Source: Rhodanobacter sp.
Lineage (GTDB): Bacteria > Pseudomonadota > Gammaproteobacteria > Xanthomonadales > Rhodanobacteraceae
DNA: 64,000 nt
Reading direction: 5' to 3'
Assembly (NCBI GenBank): GCA_041663105.1
Contig: JBAZRB010000021.1
Location: forward strand, 13,798 to 77,797
Shown: positions 27-64,000 of the stretch, piece by piece
How positions within the stretch are numbered: the stretch's first letter is position 1
Layout of the letters: each line of letters begins with the position of its first letter
Notes under the pieces: generated by a model
What the model was told of the DNA's origin: nothing
Seen by the model: the letters and a program-made list of their open reading frames with translations, nothing else
Database searches by the model: none
Translations under genes and position numbers: made by a program

Positions 27-1874
27 TCAGTCAAGTAAGTGCCACGCTATACGATCGGGGTAGATCAGGGAGCACGCTGTAGAAAGCAAGGAAATTCCTG
101 CCGACTCTGTAACAGGCCTCACCAATCCATTCCATTTTTCAGAGAAATCCGCGACACGCCAAATACCATGTCCAATTTGGAACGTAGCGTTATATCCATC
201 GTCTATTTTAACGAATGCAAAATCTGAGTATGAAGATGGAATAAACGCATTTGCATTTCGGTGATCAAGATCACTCATACCTAGATCGAATGCATCTTCA
301 AGCTCAAGTTCCTTTGCAAGCAACAACAGCACGCATAAGAATGTTGAAGGATTTGCTATTGTCTCTGGTGCATTAGGATCTCTGTCGCTTTTCGACAATA
401 AGAAGTCGATGATAAAGCTGGAGTCCATATCTGTTCGTGAAATCAATCCTTTTGCTTCGCACAGATCGAGGAAATATAGGCCAGCAAATTTCTCAAGATT
501 CTCTCTTGCCTCAGTGGCTTTCAGTGCCACGGCTATCACTAGAAGCGCCGGAGCTTGCGCATCAGTCATCGCCCTCACCGAGCCCTGATATTTATCAAGG
601 ATGATAGCAAGGAGCCGACCAGCGAGCCCTTCGGCAGTTGTCGCATCACCGCCTGACGTCCTACTTACCACTATCGCCCAGCCCAGCCAACCAAGTAGGC
701 TAGTAATTCTTCCTGGCAAAATAAACAGCTCGCCGACACCAGTGTCCCCGAGCAGAGCGAATTCGTCTCGTAATAATTCCTCGTGAATATCTTGGCATAT
801 CTCCACAATGCGTACCCCCAAATCGACGCATCGTCCGATTACGTAGCTTTCTATAACCGGCTGTCTCTTGCAATGCACCAGTAAAGGAGACAAGCACGTA
901 ACAACTACCTCAATTTCTCGGAATGGATCATGCGATTGTCCCGCACGCTGCCGCATCGCGTTAGCAAGGTTGTTCAAGAAGCTTAAATTGCTGCCGGGAT
1001 CACCCCCTGATGGAAGTACTTTGGCTAACACCTGCTGCAGATTTTTTGGCACCCATCCGTGGTCGATCTCGCTATATAAGTTCTGAATCGTATTGGCAGT
1101 TCCCGGCAGCATCGCCATTGGCCTCGCCTCTGCCAATGTGCGCCGGAGATCACTATCGCCAGAAAAATGAGGATTGGTACAGAAATTGGGGCGCCCGGTA
1201 AGGTTGAGGCCCCAGTAGGCGGGTTGTTGATTTGTTTGTCGAAGATCGCGAGAAACTATTGTTGAAATCGACGCTAAATCAAGGGCCACGTCGAGATCTT
1301 GTACAAATGTGGTGCCATTGATGCAGCGGATGATAATGGATGTACAAAGACCCTCTCCATTTACCTCGGCTGCAAACTGGTCTTGAGCACATGCGGCCAG
1401 GAGAGTGATTCCCGTTGTGGCAGCACTCCCAATGGTGTCCGGCGACAGGACACGGTTAAAGTCCCCCATGACGCCCCCACTGTTACACGCATCAATAATG
1501 AGGTTCGCGTGGCTTGGCGTAACCTCATGAATTAGTGAAAGGAGATTGTTTAGTGGTAGCGCAGAAACGCCTATTCGATCGACCTGGGTGTCGCGACAGC
1601 ACATGTAAAAAATATTTCCTTTTACATAGCCATGACCCGCAAAATAGAATGTAACAACATCTCCAGGAAGCAGTGATTTGCTCGCATCTAACAGGCCCCG
1701 CTGCAACTCTGTTAGCGACGGCGACAGGATTAGCGTACTGCAGTCCGCCTCACAGAATCCGTATTTAATATCGGTGAGCAGCGAGAAGATATTTCGCGCA
1801 TCATTTTCGGCCCCGTCTAGTGAGCGGGAATTATCATAGACATCGCAGCCAACCGCGATCAAGACATGTTTCAA
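27..1874 (-). CDS. Caspase-fold (peptidase C14/metacaspase-like) protease with ~380-aa uncharacterised C-terminal region
   Basis: 615-aa ORF. The N-terminal ~230 aa has caspase hallmarks: initial strand KHVLIAVGCDVY, His motif FYFAGHG (H81, codon nt 1632-1634), Cys motif IIDACNSGG (C130, codon nt 1485-1487). TTG start overlaps the upstream stop (TTGA). AT-rich codon usage. Confidence 0.75.
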   Translation of the reverse strand: MKHVLIAVGCDVYDNSRSLDGAENDARNIFSLLTDIKYGFCEADCSTLILSPSLTELQRGLLDASKSLLPGDVVTFYFAGHGYVKGNIFYMCCRDTQVDRIGVSALPLNNLLSLIHEVTPSHANLIIDACNSGGVMGDFNRVLSPDTIGSAATTGITLLAACAQDQFAAEVNGEGLCTSIIIRCINGTTFVQDLDVALDLASISTIVSRDLRQTNQQPAYWGLNLTGRPNFCTNPHFSGDSDLRRTLAEARPMAMLPGTANTIQNLYSEIDHGWVPKNLQQVLAKVLPSGGDPGSNLSFLNNLANAMRQRAGQSHDPFREIEVVVTCLSPLLVHCKRQPVIESYVIGRCVDLGVRIVEICQDIHEELLRDEFALLGDTGVGELFILPGRITSLLGWLGWAIVVSRTSGGDATTAEGLAGRLLAIILDKYQGSVRAMTDAQAPALLVIAVALKATEARENLEKFAGLYFLDLCEAKGLISRTDMDSSFIIDFLLSKSDRDPNAPETIANPSTFLCVLLLLAKELELEDAFDLGMSDLDHRNANAFIPSSYSDFAFVKIDDGYNATFQIGHGIWRVADFSEKWNGLVRPVTESAGISLLSTACSLIYPDRIAWHLLD

Positions 1875-2482
1875 GGCTGTTTCTCGAATTTAGCTTTTCG
1901 AATAACTTCTTCCGCTAAAGCAGACTCACTTTTGGCCTTTATCAGCGCTTCAATTCTCGCACCGTACTCCTTCGTCTGACCTTCCAGCGCAGCTATAATT
2001 GGGCCTGCATCTGCCACATGTATTTCTGGAAGACTGACGTTACCTTTACTATCTACGCCAAATTCGATCTTTTGAAGCATGCGTTCAAACGCCTCAGCAA
2101 AACCACCCGCTTCTTTGGTGTCGACCGTGTTCCCGCTACGTTCGCATGTTTCACTCATTAACCCGTAGACGCTTTGAGCAAACTGCACCTTCATTTGAAG
2201 TGCTACTTGCTCGATAGATTCACGCATGATTGAAAGATCCCCGTCTACAATGCGCCGGAAGGGCATTGCGAATTCAGCGCTGTGAGTTTTCATCTCGCCA
2301 TCAACAGCGCTTGGGAGTGCAGGGTGTTTCCAGGAAGATCCGTGCGAATAATTCAGCACATTCTCAGGGGATATCATAGTTAAGACGAGTTGCTTTTGGC
2401 TCTCAGCCATGCGCTCAGTCATGCATTCTCTGACTGCTTCGCCAAAAGAGTCAGGAGGCTGAAATGGAACTCTTCTAGTCAT
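1871..2482 (-). CDS. Hypothetical 203-aa soluble protein, partner of the caspase-like gene
   Basis: ATG at 2482 is preceded by AAAGGAG 8 nt upstream; the track ORF extends to a TTG at 2539. Stop overlaps the TTG start of the downstream gene. No TM segment and no motif I recognise. Same AT-rich composition. Confidence 0.65.
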   Translation of the reverse strand: MTRRVPFQPPDSFGEAVRECMTERMAESQKQLVLTMISPENVLNYSHGSSWKHPALPSAVDGEMKTHSAEFAMPFRRIVDGDLSIMRESIEQVALQMKVQFAQSVYGLMSETCERSGNTVDTKEAGGFAEAFERMLQKIEFGVDSKGNVSLPEIHVADAGPIIAALEGQTKEYGARIEALIKAKSESALAEEVIRKAKFEKQP

Positions 2483-2564
2483 GAATGGGACTCCTTTGCC
2501 ACATCGGGAGCGGCTGCGAAAACAGAATCCGAAGGGCAACCGCAGGCTGCACTTTCAGAGCATT

Positions 2565-4235
2565 TCAAACCATCGGCAACTTCAAGCCCTGCTCCCGCGC
2601 ACATTCGACTGCCACCTCATACCCCGCATCCGCATGCCGCATCACCCCGGTGCCCGGATCATTCCAAAGCACCCGTCCAATGCGCTTGTCCGCCTCGGCC
2701 GACCCATCGCAAACAATCACCACCCCCGAATGCTGCGAATACCCCATCCCCACCCCGCCGCCATGATGCAGCGACACCCAGGTCGCCCCACCGGCCACGT
2801 TCAACATCGCATTGAGCAACGGCCAATCCGACACCGCATCGCTCCCATCCTTCATCGCCTCGGTCTCCCGATTCGGTGACGCCACCGACCCCGAATCCAG
2901 GTGATCCCGCCCGATCACCACCGGCGCCTTCAACTCCCCATTGCGCACCATCTCGTTGAACGCCAGCCCCAGCTTGTCACGCAGTCCCAGCCCAACCCAG
3001 CAGATACGCGCCGGCAAGCCCTGGAAGCTGATCCGCTCCTTCGCCATGTCCAGCCAGTTGTGCAGGTGGGCGTCGTCCGGGATCAGCTCCTTCACTTTCC
3101 GGTCGGTCTTGTAGATGTCTTCCGGGTCGCCGGACAGCGCCACCCAGCGGAACGGCCCGATGCCACGGCAGAACAACGGCCGCACGTAGGCAGGCACGAA
3201 GCCCGGAAACGCGAACGCGTTGGCGCAGCCGACGTCCTGCGCCATCTGGCGGATGTTGTTGCCGTAGTCGAAGGTGGGGATGCCCTGCGCGTGGAACGCG
3301 AGCATGGCCTCGACGTGGGTGCGCATGGAGTGCTTGGCGGCGTCGCGGGTGCCTTCGGGATCGCTCTTGCGGCGCTCGAACCACTGCTCCACCGTCCAGC
3401 CCTGCGGCAGGTAGCCGTTGACCGGATCGTGCGCGCTGGTCTGGTCGGTGACGGCGTCGGGGCGCACGCCGCGCTTCACGAGTTCCGGCAGGATGTCGGC
3501 GGCGTTGCCCAGCAGCGCGATGGATTTCGCTTCGCCCGCTTTCGTGTATTTGTCGATGCGCGCCAGCGCGTCGTCGAGGTCGGTGGCCTGCTCGTCGACG
3601 TAGCGGGTCTTCAGGCGGAAGTCGATGCGGCTCTGCTGGCATTCGATGTTGAGGCTGCACAGGCCGGCGAGGCTGGCGGCCAGCGGCTGCGCCGCGCCCA
3701 TGCCGCCGAGGCCGGCGGTGAGCAGCCATTTGCCTTTCAGGTTGCCGCCGTAGTGCTGGCGGCCCATCTCGACGAAGGTTTCGTAGGTGCCCTGGATGAT
3801 GCCCTGCGAGCCGATGTAGATCCAGCTGCCGGCGGTCATCTGGCCGTACATCATCAGGCCTTTTTTATCGAGCTCGTTGAAGTGCTCCCAGGTGGCCCAG
3901 TGCGGCACCAGGTTGGAGTTGGCGATCAGCACGCGCGGCGCGTCGGCATGCGTGCGGAACACGCCGACCGGCTTGCCGGACTGCACCAGCAACGTCTCGT
4001 CGTTTTCAAGCGAGCGCAGCGCAAGCAGGATCGCGTCGAAGCACTCCCAGTTGCGCGCCGCCCGCCCGATGCCGCCGTACACCACCAGCTCGGCCGGGTT
4101 CTCCGCCACCTCCGGATCGAGGTTGTTCTGCAGCATGCGGAACGGCGCCTCGCTGAGCCAGCTCTTGCAGCTGAGCTCGGTGCCGCGCGGCGCGCGGATG
4201 GTGCGGGTGGTGTCGATGCGGGTGGGTGCGGTCAT
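2565..4235 (-). CDS. hutU: Urocanate hydratase
   Basis: 556-aa C-terminal part of track ORF 2565..5468, starting [18 protein letters not shown]. Full-length match to the urocanase family (GGMGGAQPLA-type NAD site, [20 protein letters not shown]). Confidence 0.95.
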
Positions 4236-4427
4236 GGTGACAAGGCTCGGGTGGTAATGACTTGCCGGAGTATAGCGCCGGGGTATCGGGCGTCCGCGCG
4301 GGGCCGATGCGAGCGGCGAAGGCGTGGTGTAACCGTTTGCGGCGTCCGGGCGAATGACCTGCACCGGCGGTAACATCCGGCGTAGCAGCCCGCCGCGCCG
4401 GTACCGTGCCGCACCAGGAGTCGCAGC

Positions 4428-5510: not shown

Positions 5511-6208
5511 ATACCGCCACCAGCTTCACCCTGACCGCCCGCGTGTTGCACTGGCTGATGGCGGCGCTGATTCTGGCGATGCTGTTTATCGGCGTCGGCA
5601 TGGTCGCCTCGGTATCCGCCCGCCACGACTGGTTGCTGCGCCTCCACAAGCCGCTGGGCATTGCGATTCTGATTCTGGCGGTGGTGCGCCTGGCGGTGCG
5701 CCTGCGCCACCCGCCACCGGCGCTGCCAGCGGATCTGCCAGCGATGCAGAAACTGGCCGCGCATGCCTCGCACTGGCTGCTGTATGTCCTGATGCTGGCG
5801 ATGCCGCTGATCGGCTGGGCGATGCTGTCGGCCGGCGGTTACCCGGTGATGCTGAGCGGGTCGCTGCGGCTGCCGCCGATCTTTCCGACCAACCCGGTCG
5901 CGTACGCCATCCTGCGCCACCTGCACGGCTGGTTTGCCTTGCTGCTGCTGTTGACGTTTCTCGCGCATATGGGCGCGGCGCTTTACCACGGCCTGATTCG
6001 CCGCGACGGGGTGCTGTCGAGCATGATCCGCCGCCACGTGGCGCCGCTGCCGGGAGAGCCTGAGCCGATCCCCCGGGACAAGGCTGCCATCGAGAACGCC
6101 ACACCGACTCCGCCGAACGACGCGGCGGAACCAGGCACCGTGCCCGCAGAACCGGACGAGGCGACGGCGCCATCGGCGTCGGTGGGATCACCGTTGCCGA
6201 CGATCTGA
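5507..6208 (+). CDS. Cytochrome b561 family protein
   Basis: ATGA overlap with the upstream gene. Four TM helices with conserved His ([27 protein letters not shown]). Confidence 0.85.
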
Positions 6209-6477
6209 TAGCCGTGACCGGTGCCGATCAGGCGCCGCGCTGGCGGCGCGCCATCGGTGCCACGGGGCATGGCGCGGCCAGCGCGGCGACGAGCAGCAAC
6301 ATGGATACCCGCACCAGCAAGCCGCGCAGCGTACGCCTGCGGAATGCATCTCTGCACTCGGGTACCGATGGCCATCCCGTCTGCAGACTGCGGTAGTGAT
6401 GCGCCCCTTTCCCCGGCCCGGGCATTGCTGTCCGAAAACGGCGAGTACGCCGCCTGGCACGGTGCTAGCCTGCGCGC

Positions 6478-7974
6478 ATGTCCGAAACCCACGCCAGCGC
6501 CCTGCCCGATGACCGCGTCTGCGAACAGGCGCGGCTGAGCCGGGATGCGCGCTTCGACGGCCTGTTCTTCACCGCCGTCACCAGCACCAGGATCTATTGC
6601 CGCCCGGTGTGCCCGGCGCCGGCGCCGAAGCCGGCGAACGTGCGCTACTACGCCAGCGCGGCGGCGGCCGAGGCGGCCGGCTTTCGGCCGTGCCTGCGCT
6701 GCCGGCCGGAGCTGGCGCCGGGCAACACGGCGTGGCGCCACGGTGAGCAGCTGGTGTCGCGTGCACTGAAGCTGATCGATGGCGGTGCGCTGGCAGAGCA
6801 CTCGCTGGAACAACTGGCCACGCGCGTGGGCGTGAGCTCGCGCCAGCTGCGCCGGCTGTTTGTGGAACATCTCGGCGCGCCGCCGATCGACGTGCACACC
6901 ACGCGCCGGCTGCTGTTCGCGAAGCAGTTGCTGACCGATACGGCGCTGCCGGTGACCGAGGTGGCGCTGGCCTCCGGTTTTGCCAGCTTGCGCCGTTTCA
7001 ACGCGGCGTTTGCGCAGGCAAACCGCATGCCGCCGCGCGAATTGCGCCGGCAACCGCGCGCGCCGCTCGGCGAGGGGTTGATCCTGCGGCTGGGTTATCG
7101 ACCGCCGTACGATTTCGACGCGCTGCTGGCGTTTCTGCGCACCCGCGCGCTGCCCGGCGTGGAGCGGGTGGACGAGCACACGTATGCCCGCGTGTTCGGC
7201 AGTGCGGACACACCCGGCTGGTTACGCCTGAGCCGCTGGCACGCGGGCGAGCACGCCCTGCGGCTGGAACTGCACGGCGCCACGCCACCGCAGTTGTTGC
7301 CGCTGGTGACGACCTTGCGGCGCATGTTCGATCTCGATGCGGAGCCGCAGGCGATTGCCGCCACGCTGGGTGCCGGCGGCGTGCTGAAGCCACTGCTGCG
7401 CAAGAGGCCGGGATTGCGCCTGCCCGGTGGCTGGGACGGTTTCGAGATTGCCGTGCGTGCGGTGCTGGGCCAGCAGGTAAGCGTGGCCGCTGCGCGCACG
7501 CTGGCGACGCGCATCGTGCAGCGCTGGGGCGCGCCGTTGAACGCAGCACCGATGGCAGGACTGGAGCGGTTGTTCCCCGCCCCGGCACAACTGGCCGATG
7601 CGGATCTGCGCGAGATCGGCGTGACCACGGCGCGTGCCGCCACCATTCGCGGCATCGCGCAGGCGCTGCTGGATGGCCGTGCGGACTTTCGCGCCGAGCA
7701 GTCGATGGACGAATTCGTCGCCCGCTGGGTGGCCTTGCCCGGCATCGGCGAATGGACCGCGCACTACATGGCGATGCGTGCATTGAGTCACCCGGACGCG
7801 TTCCCCGCGGCCGATCTGATCCTGCGCCGGGTGGCGGCCGGCGACGGGCCCGAGTTGAGCACCAAGGCGCTGACCGCGCTGGCGGAAAGCTGGCGGCCGT
7901 GGCGCGCGTATGCGGTGATGCATCTGTGGCGCCATGCCAGCGACACGGCGCCGCTGAAACGGAGCAAAGCATGA
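6478..7974 (+). CDS. alkA: Ada-type Zn methylphosphotriester/AraC regulatory domain fused to AlkA-type DNA-3-methyladenine glycosylase II
   Basis: N-terminal Cys4 Ada Zn domain (CRPVCPA...CLRCRP), AraC HTH, C-terminal HhH-GPD glycosylase region. Confidence 0.9.
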
Positions 7975-8486
7975 GCGTGGAAGCGATCTGCTACGACGAC
8001 ATGGGCAGCCCGGTCGGCCCGCTGCGACTGGTGGCTGATGCGCATGGGCTGCACCAGATCTGGTTTGAACACGAGCGGCATCCCAAGCCGATGCCAAGCC
8101 ATGCGGTGCGCTCGGCGGACGGGGTCGCGTTTGCGCGGGTGCAGCTCACCGAGTATTTCGCCGGCGAGCGGCAGGCGTTCGCGCTGCCGCTGCATCCACT
8201 GGGCACGGCATTCCAGCTGGAGGTGTGGCAGGAGCTGGCACGCATTCCGTACGGCGCCACGATCAGCTATGGCGAACTGGCGCGCCGCATCGGCAAGCCG
8301 CAGGCCATGCGCGCGGTGGGCGCGGCGAACGGACGCAACCCGCTGCCGATCGTGCTGCCGTGCCACCGCGTGATCGGCAGCGACGGCAGCCTCACCGGCT
8401 TCGGTGGCGGCCTCCCGGTGAAGCGGCTGCTGCTGGCACTGGAACAGCGCATGGCCCACGGCGACCTGTTCTCCACACCAGCCTGA
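7971..8486 (+). CDS. ogt: Methylated-DNA--protein-cysteine methyltransferase
   Basis: ATGA overlap with the upstream gene. Active-site motif PCHRV and NGRNP. Confidence 0.92.
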
Positions 8487-8495
8487 TCGGCTTGC

Positions 8496-8515
8496 CGTTG
8501 GCGCTCACGCCAACG
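8496..8515. terminator. 8-bp GC-rich hairpin between convergent ogt and the MarR-GNAT gene
   Basis: cgttggcg-ctca-cgccaacg perfect stem. No clear U-tract. Confidence 0.35.
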
Positions 8516-8545
8516 CATGCCGCGCAGGTGCGGCGATAGCCGTGC

Positions 8546-9568
8546 TCATGAGGCCGGGCCGACAGCTGCCTTTTTGCGCCGTGCAGTGGAAGTGCCTTTC
8601 GATTTCGCCGCAGGCGGCGCACGCCACACCATGTACACATCGGCGCGCTGGTAGTGCGAATCCGGCCGCACCGTGGACTGATGTTCGAAGCCGACGCTTT
8701 CGTACAGTTTGATGGCCGGCGCCAGTTTGCTGTTGGTCTCCAGAAACAGGGTCTTGCTGCCACGGCGGACGAACTCGTCGATCGCCGCATCGATCAGGCG
8801 CCGGCCGATGCCCAGGCCCTGATAACGCTCGTCCACTGCCATCTTGGTCAGTTCGAGCGAATCATTGACCTCGTGCTTGAGCGCGCAGGTACCCACCACT
8901 GCATCGCCCAGCAAGGCGAAAAACACTTCGCCGCCAGCATCGAGAATCTCCCCTTCCGGATTCGACAGCACCCGCTGGTCGATCTCCTCGATATAGAAAT
9001 ACTTGCGCAGCCACTCGGCATTGAGCCGGTGAAAGTGCTCGCGCAACGCCGGCTGGAAGGTGACCACGCGCAGCGCCTCACGCTGCAGTGCGAGGGTGCG
9101 CTCGGCGATCTCGTCCTGGATCGGCGACTCCAGCAGCTGGGCAAACGCCGTCAACGTCCCCAGCACATCGATACCGGCCTCGCTGCAATGTGACTCCAGT
9201 ACTTCATGGATCGCGCGCCAGGCCGGCTTGGCCTCGCGCAGCGCCGCATCGGCTTTGGCGGTGAGGCCCAGCCGACGCAAGCGCTTGTCCGCCACGTCGG
9301 CATTCGCCACCAGCCAGCCGTCGCGCACCAGCTTGTCGGCGAGCTGGCTGACTGCCGAATGGGTCTGCCCGATCGCCTGCGCGATCTCGCCGACGCTTTG
9401 CGGGCCGCGATCATGCAGCAGCCGCAGCAGCGGAAACCAGCGGCCCTGCACCGCGATGCCGCCGCGCCGGTAGACCTCGTCCGCGATCGCGTACAGGCGC
9501 TCGCTCAGCGCTCGCATCCGGCTGCCAAGCGCCACCAGTCCCAGCTCGTTCACGAACTCCATCGGCAT
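8546..9568 (-). CDS. MarR-family HTH fused to GNAT N-acetyltransferase
   Basis: N-terminal winged-helix MarR region, C-terminal GNAT motif (QGLGIGRRLIDAAI). The track start at 9577 is GTG; ATG codons at 9568/9562 are more likely. Confidence 0.85.
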   Translation of the reverse strand: MPMEFVNELGLVALGSRMRALSERLYAIADEVYRRGGIAVQGRWFPLLRLLHDRGPQSVGEIAQAIGQTHSAVSQLADKLVRDGWLVANADVADKRLRRLGLTAKADAALREAKPAWRAIHEVLESHCSEAGIDVLGTLTAFAQLLESPIQDEIAERTLALQREALRVVTFQPALREHFHRLNAEWLRKYFYIEEIDQRVLSNPEGEILDAGGEVFFALLGDAVVGTCALKHEVNDSLELTKMAVDERYQGLGIGRRLIDAAIDEFVRRGSKTLFLETNSKLAPAIKLYESVGFEHQSTVRPDSHYQRADVYMVWRAPPAAKSKGTSTARRKKAAVGPAS

Positions 9569-39100: not shown

Positions 39101-39586
39101 TCAGCGCGGGTAGACATGACCCCCGCGAACTTCGACGTAGTCGCCATGGCGAACGCCCGGATTCTCCCGCTGGGTCACCGTTGCGTACTGGCCGTCATCA
39201 AGCCGTACGACGATGCGCCAGGCGGGCGTATCGCCACTATTGGCCTTGCCGACCTGGTTACCGACTACGCCGCCAGCAACCGCGCCGACAACGGTAGCTG
39301 CCTTTCGGCCATCGCCCTTGCCCACCGTATTGCCGAGAACACCGCCGGCTACCGCGCCGATGATTGCACCGAGCGTGCCGCCATTGCCGCTCCCCTGGAT
39401 ATAAACCTGCTGCACTTCCTGGACCACTCCGCAGGAGCGGCATTGCACACTCTGGTTCGTGTATCCACCGGGGGCCGCGTAACCACGGTTGTAGTTGCTG
39501 CCCTGGGGCGCCGTAACGCAACCGGAGAGCGCAAGACCGGCCGCAAGCGTACCGGCCAGCGCGAATTTCGTGGTGAGTGAATTCAT
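39101..39586 (-). CDS. Glycine-zipper 2TM outer-membrane lipoprotein (SlyB/17-kDa antigen-like)
   Basis: Lipobox LALSGC. Gly-zipper GAIIGAVAGGVLGNTVG and VGAVAGGVVGNQVG. Confidence 0.75.
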   Translation of the reverse strand: MNSLTTKFALAGTLAAGLALSGCVTAPQGSNYNRGYAAPGGYTNQSVQCRSCGVVQEVQQVYIQGSGNGGTLGAIIGAVAGGVLGNTVGKGDGRKAATVVGAVAGGVVGNQVGKANSGDTPAWRIVVRLDDGQYATVTQRENPGVRHGDYVEVRGGHVYPR

Positions 39587-39615
39587 GGACTGGATTCCTT
39601 TTTCATGGAAAAAAT

Positions 39616-40197
39616 TCAACGCGCATCGGATACCGCGGTCACACCCTCCTGAACCTGAACCTTGTCGCCCGGGTCATGATCCATCCGCACCGTGCGAGCG
39701 ACACCTTTGTAAACGTACTTCACGTCGTAGCCGACGATCTTGTTGCTGGTGTCATTCACTGTTGAGCATTTGCGCTCGACCGACGTGGTGACCTGCGGGT
39801 GTTGACGACTTGCCTCAATGCGGTTGCCGGCATATCCGCCACCAACAGCGCCAGCGACCGTGGCAAGCGTCTTGCCCCTGCCCCCTCCCACCTGGTGTCC
39901 AAGCAAACCACCTGCAACCGCACCGATCGCGGTGCCCACGATGCGGTGCTGGTCCTTGGGCGGTGCGGTGTGCGTCACCGTTTCATCGCGACAGACCTGG
40001 CGCGGGTGGTTTGAACTGGAACGTACGGGCTCAACATCGACCACCCTGGCATATTTGACCCCCGCATCCGCGCTCATGCCTGTATCCGCCGTGCCGTTGT
40101 CGACACCTGCATCGGCCTCGCGGTTGCAGCCCGAAAGACCCACGAGAAGGGCCGCCGCTATTCCAAAGGGCAATGCCCTCGCCATCATCTTGTTCAT
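39616..40197 (-). CDS. Glycine-zipper 2TM lipoprotein
   Basis: Lipobox LVGLSGC. Gly-zipper GTAIGAVAGGLLGHQVG and VAGAVGGGYAGN. Confidence 0.7.
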   Translation of the reverse strand: MNKMMARALPFGIAAALLVGLSGCNREADAGVDNGTADTGMSADAGVKYARVVDVEPVRSSSNHPRQVCRDETVTHTAPPKDQHRIVGTAIGAVAGGLLGHQVGGGRGKTLATVAGAVGGGYAGNRIEASRQHPQVTTSVERKCSTVNDTSNKIVGYDVKYVYKGVARTVRMDHDPGDKVQVQEGVTAVSDAR

Positions 40198-40365
40198 CAG
40201 CACACTCTCCCATTTTTGCTTGTCGTGCCTCGCGAGGCTCCGCGGAACGCAATTACCTGCGAGGCATTGAACACGTATACAACTGAATACGAGCTAGCTC
40301 ATACCCGTTACATTATCTTCACGAAAGCGTCGCCTGACGCTCGATCCGTTCATGGAATCCGCTGC

Positions 40366-60283: not shown

Positions 60284-61153
60284 CTACGAGCCGGGCATCA
60301 ACCACCTTGAGAGCTTTTCAACATCATCCACGCATAGCTCAAAGTCCGGAGGCTGTTGCTTGGCGGGATCTGTAGACGCGCGAAGGTCGTGAATGACGTA
60401 AGGCAGCAATGCTGCCCTGACTGTTTCTATGCGTGCCGCTGAACCCCCAAGATATTCGGCACGAACCATCTGCTTTTGTTCGAGCGTCAGCTTAGGATGC
60501 GGAACTACCCGCAGAGCCACTTGTGTGGCCCAGGCAATATCCTGATCCCGCTGGGCATCACCAGGTGACGCGAGGCCGGTCACGGTCAATTCGCTCAGTC
60601 GCGTCAGCGCAAGATCCTGGAATCCTCCAGCTTCGGAGACATAGGCCCGCACATGCCACCGCCGCCCTGCTTCGACCAGCGAATGCGGATAGAAGGTCTT
60701 GGGCTTAGGCATCGGATTACGCATTGAGCAATGCTTCGCCGTCACACCGACCCCTTCTCGGATCGCCCGATGCAGGATCGCAAAGGCGCGATGGTGCACG
60801 GCTCCGAAATCAAGTTGCGTTCGCACGACGACGGCCTGCTCTAATTGCCGCTCGGTCAATGTGTATGCCAAGTACTCCTCGATCGTGCCAGCGGTCAGAA
60901 GCGGCTTGAAATCAGCATCAGCCACCCAGCGACGCTGCGCGGTCGAGTACGTCAAGCCGACCGAGTTCATGCCGACATACTGGGCCAGCAAGCGGCTGAC
61001 TGTGGTGAAGTGCAGATCTAAGAGCCCCCGAACACGCTCATTGCCCGCAGCGCCCTCCCAGAGAAGAAGCGACTCGATGGCACGCAGGGTTTCCGGGCTT
61101 TTAGCGGGAGCAGGCATGGCCAGAGTTGATGGTTGCAAGCCGGAGCGAGTCAT
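60284..61153 (-). CDS. wHTH-WYL-WCX transcriptional regulator (BrxR/CapW-like)
   Basis: 289 aa. N-terminal HTH (LLDLHFTTVSRLLAQY), central WYL-type segment (FYPHSLVEAGRRWHVRAYVSEAGGFQDLALTRL), C-terminal extension. Divergent from the SMC-type cluster. Confidence 0.78.
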   Translation of the reverse strand: MTRSGLQPSTLAMPAPAKSPETLRAIESLLLWEGAAGNERVRGLLDLHFTTVSRLLAQYVGMNSVGLTYSTAQRRWVADADFKPLLTAGTIEEYLAYTLTERQLEQAVVVRTQLDFGAVHHRAFAILHRAIREGVGVTAKHCSMRNPMPKPKTFYPHSLVEAGRRWHVRAYVSEAGGFQDLALTRLSELTVTGLASPGDAQRDQDIAWATQVALRVVPHPKLTLEQKQMVRAEYLGGSAARIETVRAALLPYVIHDLRASTDPAKQQPPDFELCVDDVEKLSRWLMPGS

Positions 61154-61184
61154 AGCAATATCACCAATATAGCGATATTGCTAT
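61152..61184. promoter_or_regulatory. Perfect 11-bp inverted repeat (candidate WYL-regulator operator) in the divergent promoter region
   Basis: ATAGCAATATC-n11-GATATTGCTAT overlaps the regulator start codon and lies 26 nt upstream of the jetA-like ATG. Extra ATAGC/TAGCGA half-sites are nearby. Confidence 0.6.
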
Positions 61185-61209
61185 GATAGCGAAAGCACTA
61201 TAACTGTCC

Positions 61210-62637
61210 ATGTTCCTCACCCAGACCCCGCCCTTGTTCGATGTGCTCCCCAGGGATCTGTTCCGACCGCTGGCTTCACTCAATCGAGTGCACTACTGGC
61301 GATTGCTTTTCTTGCTCTACGGCAAATTCTTCGGCTCGGAAGCGGACCTGCCACCGGCGGCAGGTTGGAATCGCCGGGATCTGTTGATCGCCATCGAACA
61401 GTTGCTCGAAGACGACGATCCTTGGGAACTGGAAGATGGCGAATCACCCAACTCCCCTATCAACATTCGGGCCCACACTTACCTCAGACGTCTGATCGAA
61501 GCAGGCTGGCTACTCGAAGAGCGTGTTGGATTGGCTGTCGTTGTCTCCATGCCTACCGTGGTGAACCGGCTCATGGAGACCTTGCAGGTTTTCATCGAGT
61601 TCTCACCGCCTCCAGTGGGCGCGAAGATGCGATCGATCGAAAGCGCCTTACAAAGGGTGCTGACGTCGTCACAGCCGGGCGACGAACTGGATGAGGCGGC
61701 CTCGCAGGCCCGTCTTTTGGTAGGAAGCATGGCTGCTATGGGATTGCGTGTGCGAGAACTGATGCGCGGACTCTCGGCCGATGTCACCACCGCACAGGCG
61801 CTACACCAGATTTTCGACGAATACATCGGCAAGACCTATATGGCGGACTATGCGCAGCTCGCCGGTGCCGATCATCCTCTCGCCCGCAAGTCGGCCGTGC
61901 TCGCACTGGTCAGCGAGATCGCCCTGAGCGACCAGCGCGATCGCTTGCTGGCCTGGTACGCCGAACACCGCACCGGAGGTAACCGTGATCAGGCCGATGA
62001 CCGGCTCGAACGCACGCTCCGTCGCATCAAGGATCTCAGCCGGCTCCAGGATTTCCTAGATCGCCTGGAAGACGATCTCAGACGTATGAATCGACGCATG
62101 CTTGCATTGATCGACTATCGCCTGCATGCACCAAGCCATCTCGAAATCCGCATCAAGCGAGCCATTGCCGGCATGAAGGACAGTGACGGGCTGGAGGTGT
62201 CCCCACCAGTTGGTCCCGGCCAGATGCTTTCTGGAGAACTGTTGTTCAAGCCGCGCAAACGGAGGTCCCCCATTCCGCTGGCGGCCGACGCGCAGCGGCA
62301 GATGTCGCCCGAACAGGAAGCCCGCATGCGCCTTCGCGCCCAAGCTCGCGATGCAAGACGTGTGCAATCCAAGGACATCTACGCTTACCTGCACAGGACG
62401 ATGAGCACGAATCTGCAGGTGCTGGCATCGGATCTCCCAATCCAGTCCATCAAGGATTTCCGGGTCGTCCAGACTCTGTCCAGCATGGCCCTCGCCGCGA
62501 CGGCGCTCTCCGTCCGAGGCAAAGGCAACGGGATGATCGGCAAGCTCCCCAAGTACGCCTTCCGCATCGCCAGTGGCAGGTACGTCGACAACGGGTATTT
62601 GGACATGCCCGACTTCTACATCACAAAAGTGGGATGA
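61210..62637 (+). CDS. jetA: JetA/MksF-like (kleisin-type) first subunit of a Wadjet-like SMC system
   Basis: 475 aa. Assigned from size, position and operon order (A-B-SMC), not from a motif I can verify. Confidence 0.55.
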   Translation: MFLTQTPPLFDVLPRDLFRPLASLNRVHYWRLLFLLYGKFFGSEADLPPAAGWNRRDLLIAIEQLLEDDDPWELEDGESPNSPINIRAHTYLRRLIEAGWLLEERVGLAVVVSMPTVVNRLMETLQVFIEFSPPPVGAKMRSIESALQRVLTSSQPGDELDEAASQARLLVGSMAAMGLRVRELMRGLSADVTTAQALHQIFDEYIGKTYMADYAQLAGADHPLARKSAVLALVSEIALSDQRDRLLAWYAEHRTGGNRDQADDRLERTLRRIKDLSRLQDFLDRLEDDLRRMNRRMLALIDYRLHAPSHLEIRIKRAIAGMKDSDGLEVSPPVGPGQMLSGELLFKPRKRRSPIPLAADAQRQMSPEQEARMRLRAQARDARRVQSKDIYAYLHRTMSTNLQVLASDLPIQSIKDFRVVQTLSSMALAATALSVRGKGNGMIGKLPKYAFRIASGRYVDNGYLDMPDFYITKVG

Positions 62638-62638
62638 C

Positions 62639-63283
62639 ATGGCCTCGATTTGGGAACGCCTCGCCGAAAGCAGTCGCATGTTCACTATCGACGACTTTGA
62701 ACGCGCCGCCTATCGAGTGGTGACAGCGCAAGTGTTGTCGGTGAACGAGCAAGCCACCCGCAAGGACTACTACTTGGTCGCGGAGCATCTGCGCGAGTTC
62801 AAGCAGGTACTCGAACCACTTGGCATCAGTCTTCGCCACAACACTCAATTCCGGTACATCGTCGCCCAGACACGACATGTCCTGAACCAGAACAAGGCCT
62901 CCAAGACCGTCACCCTGATGGTACTGGTTCTAGCCGATATCTATCACCGCGTGAGGTTCAACGGCCAGGAGGGCGACTTCGGCGAGGCCTACGTCGAACT
63001 GCCGGACCTGCAGGAGGCCTATCAGGGAATGACGGGCTACGAGTTCCCCAAGACGGGCGAGCTCCGCGAGCTGATCGCCGATCTCGAGCGCTGGGGGGTT
63101 GCACGCAAGCACGAAAGTGATGTCGACCACACACAGCCCTTCAGCGTCATGATCCACCCGGCGATCTCGGACATCGTGACCAAGGAGTGGCTCGGACAGC
63201 TCGAAGGCCTGCGCAAGCAGACGGGCACTGACGAGCTAGAAGGGGAAGCCGAACCGGAGGAGTCCGACGATGTATCTGCTTGA
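62639..63283 (+). CDS. jetB: JetB/MksE-like small subunit with acidic C-terminal tail
   Basis: 214 aa, starts 2 nt after the jetA-like stop, tail DELEGEAEPEESDD. Pattern resembles DUF4194-type proteins from memory. Confidence 0.55.
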   Translation: MASIWERLAESSRMFTIDDFERAAYRVVTAQVLSVNEQATRKDYYLVAEHLREFKQVLEPLGISLRHNTQFRYIVAQTRHVLNQNKASKTVTLMVLVLADIYHRVRFNGQEGDFGEAYVELPDLQEAYQGMTGYEFPKTGELRELIADLERWGVARKHESDVDHTQPFSVMIHPAISDIVTKEWLGQLEGLRKQTGTDELEGEAEPEESDDVSA

Positions 63284-64000
63284 AAAGTTCCACCTCGTCC
63301 AGTTCTATCTGTTCTCGGCCACCACGCTGCACTTCGGCAGCAGCTCGGCCATCGTCGCACCGAACGGCTCGGGTAAGTCCGCGGTATTGGATGCCATGCA
63401 GATCGTGCTCCACGGTGGCGACCAGAAGGCAATCGACCTCAACGCCCAGTCCGGCGGGCAGAAAGGGGGACGCTCGATCCGCGAGTATCTGCTGGGGTAC
63501 TACCGCGACGACGAGAACGTCCGCGACCATGCCACCTGCTATCTAACGATGGTTTTTCGCGACAGTACCGGCAAGCATCCGCTCGTATCGGTAGGGCTCT
63601 GTCTGGGCGCGACTATCAATGAGCCCAAGCATCGCGTCCATGGCATGTACATCCTGCCCGGAGTGGACCTGAAACTCGAAGACCATACCCAGACCGACAA
63701 GGGACAACTCATGCCCTTGGCGTGGCCTGACTTCAAGGACTGGGCTAGCGAACGTACGATCGCGGCCGGTGGGAAACCAGACTTCCCCAGGGACAGAGTC
63801 GCATCGGACTTCGTCCAGCGCATGTTGTTCCAACTGCGTGCCGACCGGGCGCGCAGCATCGACAACGTCGCCTTCTCCAAGGCACTGAAGAATGCCCTGA
63901 ACCTGAAGGACGTCCACGATGCCAGCGCCTTCGTCCGCGATCGCATCATCGAAGAGCGCCCTATCAACATCAGCGAGTTCCGACACCAGTTGGAAACCTT
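63270..64000 (+). CDS. jetC: SMC/JetC(MksB)-like ATPase, N-terminal 243 aa only (continues off-window)
   Basis: Hand-translated open frame from the ATG at 63270, with a 14-nt overlap with the jetB-like gene: MYLLEKFHLVQFYLFSATTLHFGSSSAIVAPNGSGKSAVLDAMQIVL... has an SMC-head Walker A. No stop before nt 64000, so it is absent from the ORF track. Confidence 0.75.
   Translation, partial: MYLLEKFHLVQFYLFSATTLHFGSSSAIVAPNGSGKSAVLDAMQIVLHGGDQKAIDLNAQSGGQKGGRSIREYLLGYYRDDENVRDHATCYLTMVFRDSTGKHPLVSVGLCLGATINEPKHRVHGMYILPGVDLKLEDHTQTDKGQLMPLAWPDFKDWASERTIAAGGKPDFPRDRVASDFVQRMLFQLRADRARSIDNVAFSKALKNALNLKDVHDASAFVRDRIIEERPINISEFRHQLET

Follow-up and report, generated by a model that had tools for sequence, protein, structure and literature searches.

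Pairing a protease with an effector is emerging as a dominant design of prokaryotic immunity and echoes the caspase-driven cell death of animals. About ten families of protease-associated partners have been described, namely MBL, alpha/beta-hydrolase, Pepco, EACC1, PCaspase, gasdermin, CATASP, MPE, CalpT and Csx30 (PMC12642450). The gasdermin, EACC1, Pepco, MBL and hydrolase effectors adjoin their protease and are freed by site-specific cleavage; for EACC1 and Pepco the stated position is upstream of it, and Pepco is activated when a short charged C-terminal tail is cut off at one conserved residue (PMC12642450). A caspase without a dedicated effector can also defend alone (PMC12642450). The caspase of type IV Thoeris was found experimentally to be arginine-specific, and its C-terminal domain has been proposed to bind the signal (Rousset et al., 10.1101/2024.10.24.620036). 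Here, we analysed a two-gene cassette lying next to the core gene hutU at the left end of a 64,000-nt stretch of DNA from a metagenome-assembled genome of Rhodanobacter sp. (contig JBAZRB010000021.1, positions 13,798 to 77,797), hereafter called the window. It encodes a 203-aa protein, the partner, followed by a 615-aa caspase-family protease. We favour the view that these two genes form a conflict module that is complete in itself and moves horizontally, and whose protease would cleave the partner, a plausible reading to which we give somewhat less than even weight. The conflict in question would most likely be with phages, the module acting by abortive infection.

The first-pass annotation of the window had seen an intact caspase His/Cys dyad in the 615-aa protein, and this was borne out. 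Residues 6-224 matched the Pfam family PF00656 (Peptidase_C14) with an E value of 1.4e-15 and 58.1 bits, for a cut-off of 21.4, and neither His81 (FYFAGHG) nor Cys130 (IIDACNSGG) varied among 46 family members. The same 46 members underlay an AlphaFold2 model with a mean predicted local distance difference test score (pLDDT) of 89.8, which placed H81 after strand 73-80 and C130 after strand 122-129, that is, at the ends of adjacent strands. In Foldseek, the N-terminal third superposed on MALT1, the yeast (Yca1) and plant metacaspases and GSU0716 of Geobacter, all with a probability of 1.00 and E values of 1e-8 to 1e-5; the template-modelling score was 0.72 to MALT1 (3v4o_A) and 0.64 to GSU0716. 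As modelled, the N-terminal part of the protease is a bona fide caspase/metacaspase fold with its dyad in place, a point that the annotation had left to structure prediction.

Two further residues, Asp25 (GAENDA) and Asp128 (IIDAC), were likewise invariant across the 46 sequences. By BLASTP, residues 4-220 aligned at 27% identity (E 9e-21) with the caspase from a TIR+caspase operon of type IV Thoeris architecture, and the two aspartates fell on the NDA and LDSC motifs of that caspase. Because they align with these NDA/DxC motifs and because the Thoeris IV caspase is Arg-specific, we predict Arg/Lys specificity for the protease. Asp25 and Asp128 are presumably equivalent to the S1-pocket aspartates of metacaspases, D95 and D211 in TbMCA2.

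It had also been remarked that the protease lacks sensor repeats. As a matter of fact, no TPR, NACHT, WD40 or LRR signature was found in it, but a large and confidently predicted helical domain had been overlooked. Residues 240-615 (~375 aa) were modelled by AlphaFold2 as about 13 helices and a small beta-sheet (540-567), with a pLDDT mostly above 90 for residues 320-615. Family members conserve this domain over its whole length. It had no Pfam match, and profile searches of the PDB returned weak matches only, to designed helical repeat proteins (E 0.08-0.8). Judging from the model, it is a likely candidate for a sensor or partner-binding domain.

The partner is an acidic (isoelectric point 5.4), soluble protein of 22.5 kDa, in which no transmembrane segment was detected (maximum 19-residue Kyte-Doolittle hydropathy 0.98). 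The annotation had called it unrecognisable, and our searches agreed: there was no credible family match in Pfam, NCBIfam, PHROGs or PADLOC, nothing credible in a profile search of the PDB, and nothing below E = 1 when its model was compared by Foldseek with the solved structures of the PDB and the predicted viral structures of BFVD. The partner family and the C-terminal domain of the protease thus match no family model or structure in the libraries searched. The AlphaFold2 model of the partner (pLDDT 84) shows three long helices (11-36, 84-116 and 171-200) around a small alpha/beta region. The family is large, since a profile search of 1.84 billion representatives gave 1,577 matches at E <= 1e-3 and 269 at E <= 1e-30, nearly all of them proteins that stand alone and have 200-220 aa. 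Conservation was seen at N41, H47, G48, W51, S68, G117, N118, G147 and P152 and in a C-terminal motif, A188-L-x-R-E192-x-x-R195-[KL]-A-[KR]198-[FY]. Within it, R195 (98-100%) and R/K198 (93-98%) are the sole basic positions conserved across the family, and the conservation pattern makes the motif a candidate cleavage or docking site.

Three other leads on the partner were discarded. A PADLOC match to OloA (E 0.0057) spanned 70 residues at the tail of a model with 596 positions and was taken as noise. The name "HicB family RNase H-like nuclease", given by JGI to one homologue (P0105), was backed by no model. Longer "fusion" members (P0147, P0173, P0209, P0222 and P0254) seem to result from starts called too far upstream or from read-through into the caspase gene after a frameshift, and were uninformative.

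A scan of one genome per species yielded 47 loci (L005-L051 in our numbering) with protease relatives at 29-38% identity, 46 of them effectively full-length, in Alpha-, Beta- and Gammaproteobacteria and in Verrucomicrobiota. Co-conservation of the two families, which the annotation had set as a test of its claim, proved strict. In every one of the 45 loci that offered upstream DNA beside a full-length relative, a co-directional partner homologue lay directly upstream (phmmer E 1e-13 to 1e-46), usually overlapping the protease start and commonly by 4 nt, and the reverse search from partner homologues led to the same protease. No third gene was conserved: with both flanks visible, all-against-all clustering found no flanking open reading frame (ORF) family in more than 6 of the 45 loci. 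Insertion sites varied among loci. The pair is a well-delimited two-gene unit. Distance matrices of partner and protease were correlated (r = 0.92), the partner following the C-terminal domain (0.93) more closely than the caspase domain (0.82; Mantel p <= 0.0005). Partner and C-terminal domain were equally divergent, and both were more so than the caspase domain.

The first 2.5 kb of the window had been judged by eye to be AT-richer than the rest, in the mid-40s versus the high-60s for %GC. The contrast was real but smaller, the computed values being 48.9% (1-2564) versus 64.6% (2565-64000), with a standard deviation of 3.4% and a minimum of 56.2% over 1-kb windows of the latter. GC content at third codon positions was 0.44-0.48 in the cassette genes versus 0.89 in hutU. 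In many high-GC hosts, the low-GC patch was exactly the 2.5-kb pair, and GC recovered immediately on both sides. Across L005-L051, cassette GC was about 0.43-0.64 whatever the host; most high-GC hosts had flanks clearly richer in GC, by up to 0.2, and in other hosts cassette and flanks were similar.

Selection was analysed by comparison with an 88%-identical relative (L003), likewise located after hutU. The ratio of nonsynonymous to synonymous substitution rates (dN/dS) was 0.20 for the partner, 0.14 for the protease and 0.06 for hutU, and dS was indistinguishable among the three. Given these low ratios and a dS equal to that of hutU, partner and protease are under purifying selection; they are functional, stably kept and inherited with hutU in this lineage. 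In the same comparison, the two proteins changed 2-3 times faster than hutU. Incidentally, the Rhodanobacter cassette has kept its unameliorated composition despite a dS equal to that of hutU beside it, suggesting either that recombination has often replaced it or that selection acts on composition.

Further observations bear on mobility. The distribution of the pair is patchy, the 90% cluster of the protease holding 2 sequences versus 244 in that of hutU, and one relative is carried by a Sulfitobacter plasmid. We searched 42 loci for target-site duplications and terminal inverted repeats around the cassette, and none exceeded shuffled controls apart from one repeat in a Parvibaculum sp. metagenome-assembled genome (L019). 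There, the cassette is bracketed at about 5363 and 7776 by a 39-nt perfect direct repeat, GCGGATGAGAGCCTTTAGGGGCTCTCATTCGCGGGGGGC, which is itself hairpin-forming and may be either an insertion scar or an element of the repetitive extragenic palindromic (REP-like) kind; the other 41 loci tested had nothing comparable.

Metagenome scaffolds from ENA that represent one lineage (L093-L096) carried an altered version of the pair, with the partner intact and the protease cut short. In L094, for instance (6001-8731), the caspase gene after an intact partner of 215 aa breaks off at about residue 115, before the catalytic Cys, and FAGHG has become FAGHA. The stretch in L094 lies inside the transfer cluster of a conjugative type IV secretion system (TrwC, coupling protein, CagX, TrbI). 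We considered that the gene after its truncated caspase might be a split C-terminal domain, which it was not, being an unrelated ATPase of the type IV secretion type. These scaffolds look like cases of an orphaned partner on a mobile element. A partner standing beside a decayed protease means that the partner alone is tolerated, which fits an inert pro-effector and an antitoxin alike.

Genomic context was read, at the 45 loci, from the two ORFs closest to the pair in either direction, matched to PADLOC models at E <= 1e-10. About 15 of 175 neighbours (~9%, a raw tally per family and not per locus) matched defence models, including type II restriction-modification, a CBASS 4TM effector, NsnB/C, hydrolase(-TM), MADS, SIR2-HerA, Dsr1 and PDC-S28. 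Integrases, resolvases and a MobA relaxase were found among the other neighbours. Clear defence islands were present at L012, L037 and L039, with HerA adjoining the pair in the first of them (Trinickia). This context suggests a conflict system carried as mobile cargo.

Some of these neighbourhoods deserve a description of their own. In Rugamonas sp. A1-17 (L037, JAJLPB010000024.1, 3766-10597), three caspase-based modules stand in tandem: a ThsB-like TIR protein (136 aa) with a 324-aa caspase, of type IV Thoeris architecture; the partner with a 620-aa caspase; and a 379-aa caspase-domain protein with a 493-aa protein that has no match. The third of these modules also lies downstream of the pair in Massilia eburnea (L039, 8070-10786). 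In a 67-70%-identical relative (L002), a gene convergent to the pair (2752-4254, minus strand) encodes a 500-aa protein with a Walker-A-like GMGKS, which matches phrog_22717, a phage family of unknown function, at E 1e-124 and has no Pfam or PADLOC match.

On the reading that we favour, the module would work as follows. The caspase/metacaspase-fold protease, a predicted Arg/Lys cutter, would be held latent by its ~375-aa helical C-terminal domain, which would itself sense the trigger. The partner would be the dedicated client of the protease. Once activated, the protease would cut it at the C-terminal E-x-x-R195-x-x-K/R198 motif, and this cut would release an effector activity. This scheme is drawn by analogy with tail removal in Pepco and with the activation of gasdermins. 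If such cleavage does occur, the partner would represent a new effector mechanism. The pair makes do with two genes, free of accessory components, and is widespread in soil and water bacteria. A bolder version, which we put forward tentatively and think rather doubtful, is that the partner founds a widespread new family (>1,500 representative clusters) of caspase-controlled effectors with an unseen fold, and that, with the caspase and the new helical sensor domain fused to it, this partner makes up an anti-phage system not yet described. An Arg-specific caspase would there license its effector by trimming a conserved C-terminal tail, a further, structurally independent case of the pyroptosis-type logic that leads from caspase to executioner.

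Several points weigh against cleavage of the partner and against a role in conflict. In the AlphaFold2 model, R195 is part of a helix predicted with confidence and is only 8 residues short of the C-terminus. It would be unusual to find a scissile bond there, and the C-terminal motif could serve for docking instead of cleavage. No toxin-like feature was found in the partner, whether transmembrane segment, enzyme motif or structural neighbour. The co-evolution signal is what would be expected of any tightly linked gene pair. Support had also been sought in defence islands: a few clear ones were present, but the signal from the neighbours was moderate (about 15/175), and many loci sit among housekeeping genes, as in this window (hutU, catalase) and in L097. 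The first-pass suggestion of an undescribed conflict module was therefore upheld in part, for the two families are co-conserved, the dyad is modelled as in caspases and no named system was recognised, whereas the evidence for defence, with ~9% of neighbours, is circumstantial.

A different possibility was that the partner acts upstream of the protease, as in a sensor-plus-executioner system in the style of type IV Thoeris. It would detect infection and, without being a substrate, switch on the protease via the C-terminal domain, whether by binding directly or by making a small-molecule signal; the protease would then degrade many host proteins after Arg (e.g., EF-Tu) and so abort the infection. 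Several observations agree with this: the alignment of the caspase domain with caspases of Thoeris IV architecture, down to the NDA and DxC(H/N)SG motifs, the common gene order of a small gene and then a caspase, the signal binding proposed for the Thoeris IV C-terminal domain, the stronger co-variation of the partner with the C-terminal domain, and the ability of a lone caspase to defend without a dedicated effector (PMC12642450). In addition, the invariant polar residues H47, S68, N118, E192 and R195 of the partner could make an active or binding site, and the partner would then be a new kind of infection sensor. We nevertheless think this arrangement unlikely, as the partner is not a TIR protein and resembles no known enzyme or nucleotide-binding fold, and as the ~375-aa C-terminal domain is unrelated to the ~100-aa tail of Thoeris IV. 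It is also quite improbable, to our mind, that the pair is an addiction module of the toxin-antitoxin kind, in which the protease would be the toxin and the coupled acidic partner its stoichiometric inhibitor, loss or degradation of which would free the protease. The layout is the classical one, with a small upstream gene overlapping a larger downstream gene by 4 nt; the partner is acidic; the cassette is mobile, being found on a plasmid and in a conjugative element; and an intact partner beside a truncated protease (L093-L096) is what toxin decay leaving an orphan antitoxin would produce. That last pattern fits an inert pro-effector equally well, however, and neither a DNA-binding nor a known antitoxin domain was found in the partner (Pfam, NCBIfam). 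The partner is moreover predicted to be well folded, unlike typical antitoxins, which are labile and partly disordered, and a large sensor-like C-terminal domain is left unexplained.

The pair could also have nothing to do with conflict and form a dedicated protease-substrate or protease-chaperone couple serving physiology, for example in proteolysis under stress, in the maturation of a structural protein or in the regulated death of starving cells, its horizontal mobility being incidental. Bacterial orthocaspases and metacaspases do have proposed non-immune roles, most neighbours of the pair are housekeeping genes, and in Rhodanobacter the cassette is inherited vertically beside hutU with equal dS. 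We accord this little probability in view of the patchy distribution (2 versus 244 sequences), the cassette-sized low-GC islands in many unrelated hosts, the varying insertion sites, the recurrence of defence genes and other caspase modules as neighbours, and an amino-acid divergence faster than that of the flanking core gene. Finally, the annotation had suspected that further components lie off-window, which would make the pair part of a larger, already named multi-gene system with genes to the left. Indeed, the window begins only 26 nt past the protease stop, and a 3.3-kb Logan contig (L001) that adds 224 nt on that side is still at about 50% GC there. An off-window third component is unlikely, though, because no neighbour is conserved on either side in 45 loci and because GC is back to host level directly after the pair. 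Models of named systems in PADLOC, Pfam and NCBIfam did not match the partner either, and in L001 a hairpin follows the protease stop, albeit not a statistically significant one (z = -1.4). Membership of a larger named system hence seems very improbable indeed.

The coordinates of the cassette are collected in the table. As first annotated, the two genes are co-directional, overlap each other and begin 82 nt after hutU. The 4-nt overlap implies translational coupling, and the same geometry was found again in nearly all related loci. NCBI names the three proteins (MFA6231881-83) "caspase family protein", "hypothetical protein" and "urocanate hydratase". Start calls for the partner conflict, JGI giving 183 aa from an internal start and NCBI 203 aa. 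The sequence supports the 203-aa form, which has the AAGGAG box in front of it and retains a conserved N-terminal P6-F7; the same two features disfavour the JGI start. A 222-aa ORF from a TTG was without support, the strong Shine-Dalgarno box preceding the ATG at 2482 instead. No promoter-like or terminator-like site was called in the 82-nt spacer, where the scan did no better than on shuffled sequences.

Table. Features of the two-gene cassette and its flanking core gene (positions in the window)
Feature	Position	Strand	Description
Protease gene	27..1874	-	615 aa; TTG start 1872-1874; stop 27-29; NCBI MFA6231881.1 "caspase family protein"
Caspase (Peptidase_C14) domain	1170..1874	-	Residues 1-235; from Pfam, Foldseek and conservation
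Catalytic codons	His81 = 1632-1634; Cys130 = 1485-1487	-	
Predicted S1-pocket codons	Asp25 = 1800-1802; Asp128 = 1491-1493	-	
Protease C-terminal domain	30..1157	-	Residues 240-615; candidate sensor or partner-binding domain
Partner gene	1871..2482	-	203 aa; ATG 2480-2482; stop 1871-1873
Partner C-terminal motif	1886..1921	-	Residues 188-199; candidate cleavage or docking site
Stop/start overlap TTGA, 4 nt	1871..1874	-	Partner TGA (1871-1873) with protease TTG (1872-1874)
AAGGAG Shine-Dalgarno box	2491..2496	-	8-nt spacer to partner ATG
Spacer, hutU stop to partner ATG	2483..2564	-	82 nt; right-hand edge of the low-GC cassette
hutU	2565..4235	-	Urocanate hydratase, 556 aa; flanking core gene, outside the module

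Elsewhere in the window, a stretch at 60284-63283 holds a gene for a WYL-domain protein (60284-61153, minus strand), JetA (61210-62637, plus strand) and a DUF4194/JetB-like gene (62573-63283, plus strand). It looks like a Wadjet anti-plasmid system that continues past position 64000; its GC is mildly low (0.56-0.60), and it lies about 58 kb from the caspase cassette. At 39101-40203 (minus strand), a slightly low-GC patch encodes two adjacent paralogous small proteins of the outer-membrane type, with a glycine-zipper 2TM domain (Rick_17kDa_Anti).

The annotation had also held that the pair does not fit known protease-based architectures, and we compared it with each in turn. Type IV Thoeris is alike in being a two-gene operon with a small upstream gene, followed by the gene of a protein whose N-terminal part is a caspase. 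Homology between the two caspase domains includes common NDA and DxC(H/N)SG motifs, with the catalytic Cys at C129 there and C130 here. Regulation of the protease through its C-terminal domain is a feature of Thoeris IV and may be one here, where that domain is modelled as a candidate sensor. The partners differ: ours is not a TIR protein, since no TIR match was found in it with Pfam, PADLOC or NCBIfam, its profile aligned by hhalign with the Thoeris IV TIR at a probability of 0.2, and its predicted fold is helical and not flavodoxin-like. It has 203 aa versus about 125-137 aa for the TIR protein. The protease has 615 aa versus about 320 aa, BLASTP similarity ending at residue 220, and the whole helical domain beyond has no relation to the Thoeris IV tail.

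EACC1-caspase pairs (Kaur et al. 2020, PMC7159879; Evans et al. 2025, PMC12642450) also combine a 5' small protein with a 3' protein made of an N-terminal caspase and further domains. The best NCBIfam match of the caspase domain was in fact "caspase, EACC1-associated type" (caspase_w_EACC1), but it scored 70.8 bits for a cut-off of 140. EACC1 is a cleavage-activated effector of about 115 aa with a single transmembrane helix, and its mass of about 12.8 kDa is the sum of 5.7- and 7.1-kDa cleavage fragments. The partner studied here, of 203 aa and 22.5 kDa, is soluble and without a transmembrane segment, and has no NCBIfam or Pfam match. Gasdermin operons share the 5'-small/3'-protease order and the general design. 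In those of Johnson et al. 2022, the effector is reportedly activated by loss of a short C-terminal peptide. Unlike a gasdermin, the partner is predicted to be mainly helical, with no gasdermin-family match in Pfam or PADLOC and no Foldseek match in the PDB.

Pepco (Trypco) resembles the partner in standing immediately upstream of its protease, and the conserved R195/K198 tail motif invites the same logic of tail removal. Yet Pepco is a 117-aa protein that forms a beta-barrel oligomer and is cut after Ile in the serine-protease-associated example that was studied (PMC12642450), whereas the partner has 203 aa, is helical and has no Pfam or NCBIfam match. CATRA/CATASP systems (Burroughs & Aravind 2020; named in PMC8195603 and PMC12642450) are likewise caspase-dependent conflict systems with a small protein. 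They are ternary (PMC8195603), versus no conserved third gene here, although the partner may yet be homologous to CATASP. No CATRA match was found in NCBIfam, which contains models of that system. Collectively, the pair lacked the features by which we tested for type IV Thoeris, gasdermin, EACC1 and Pepco systems, the comparison with CATRA being partial, so that the misfit noted at first sight largely stands. It is a candidate new variant on the theme of the protease-partner conflict module, with a partner family and a C-terminal domain for which the searched libraries gave neither a family model nor a structure.

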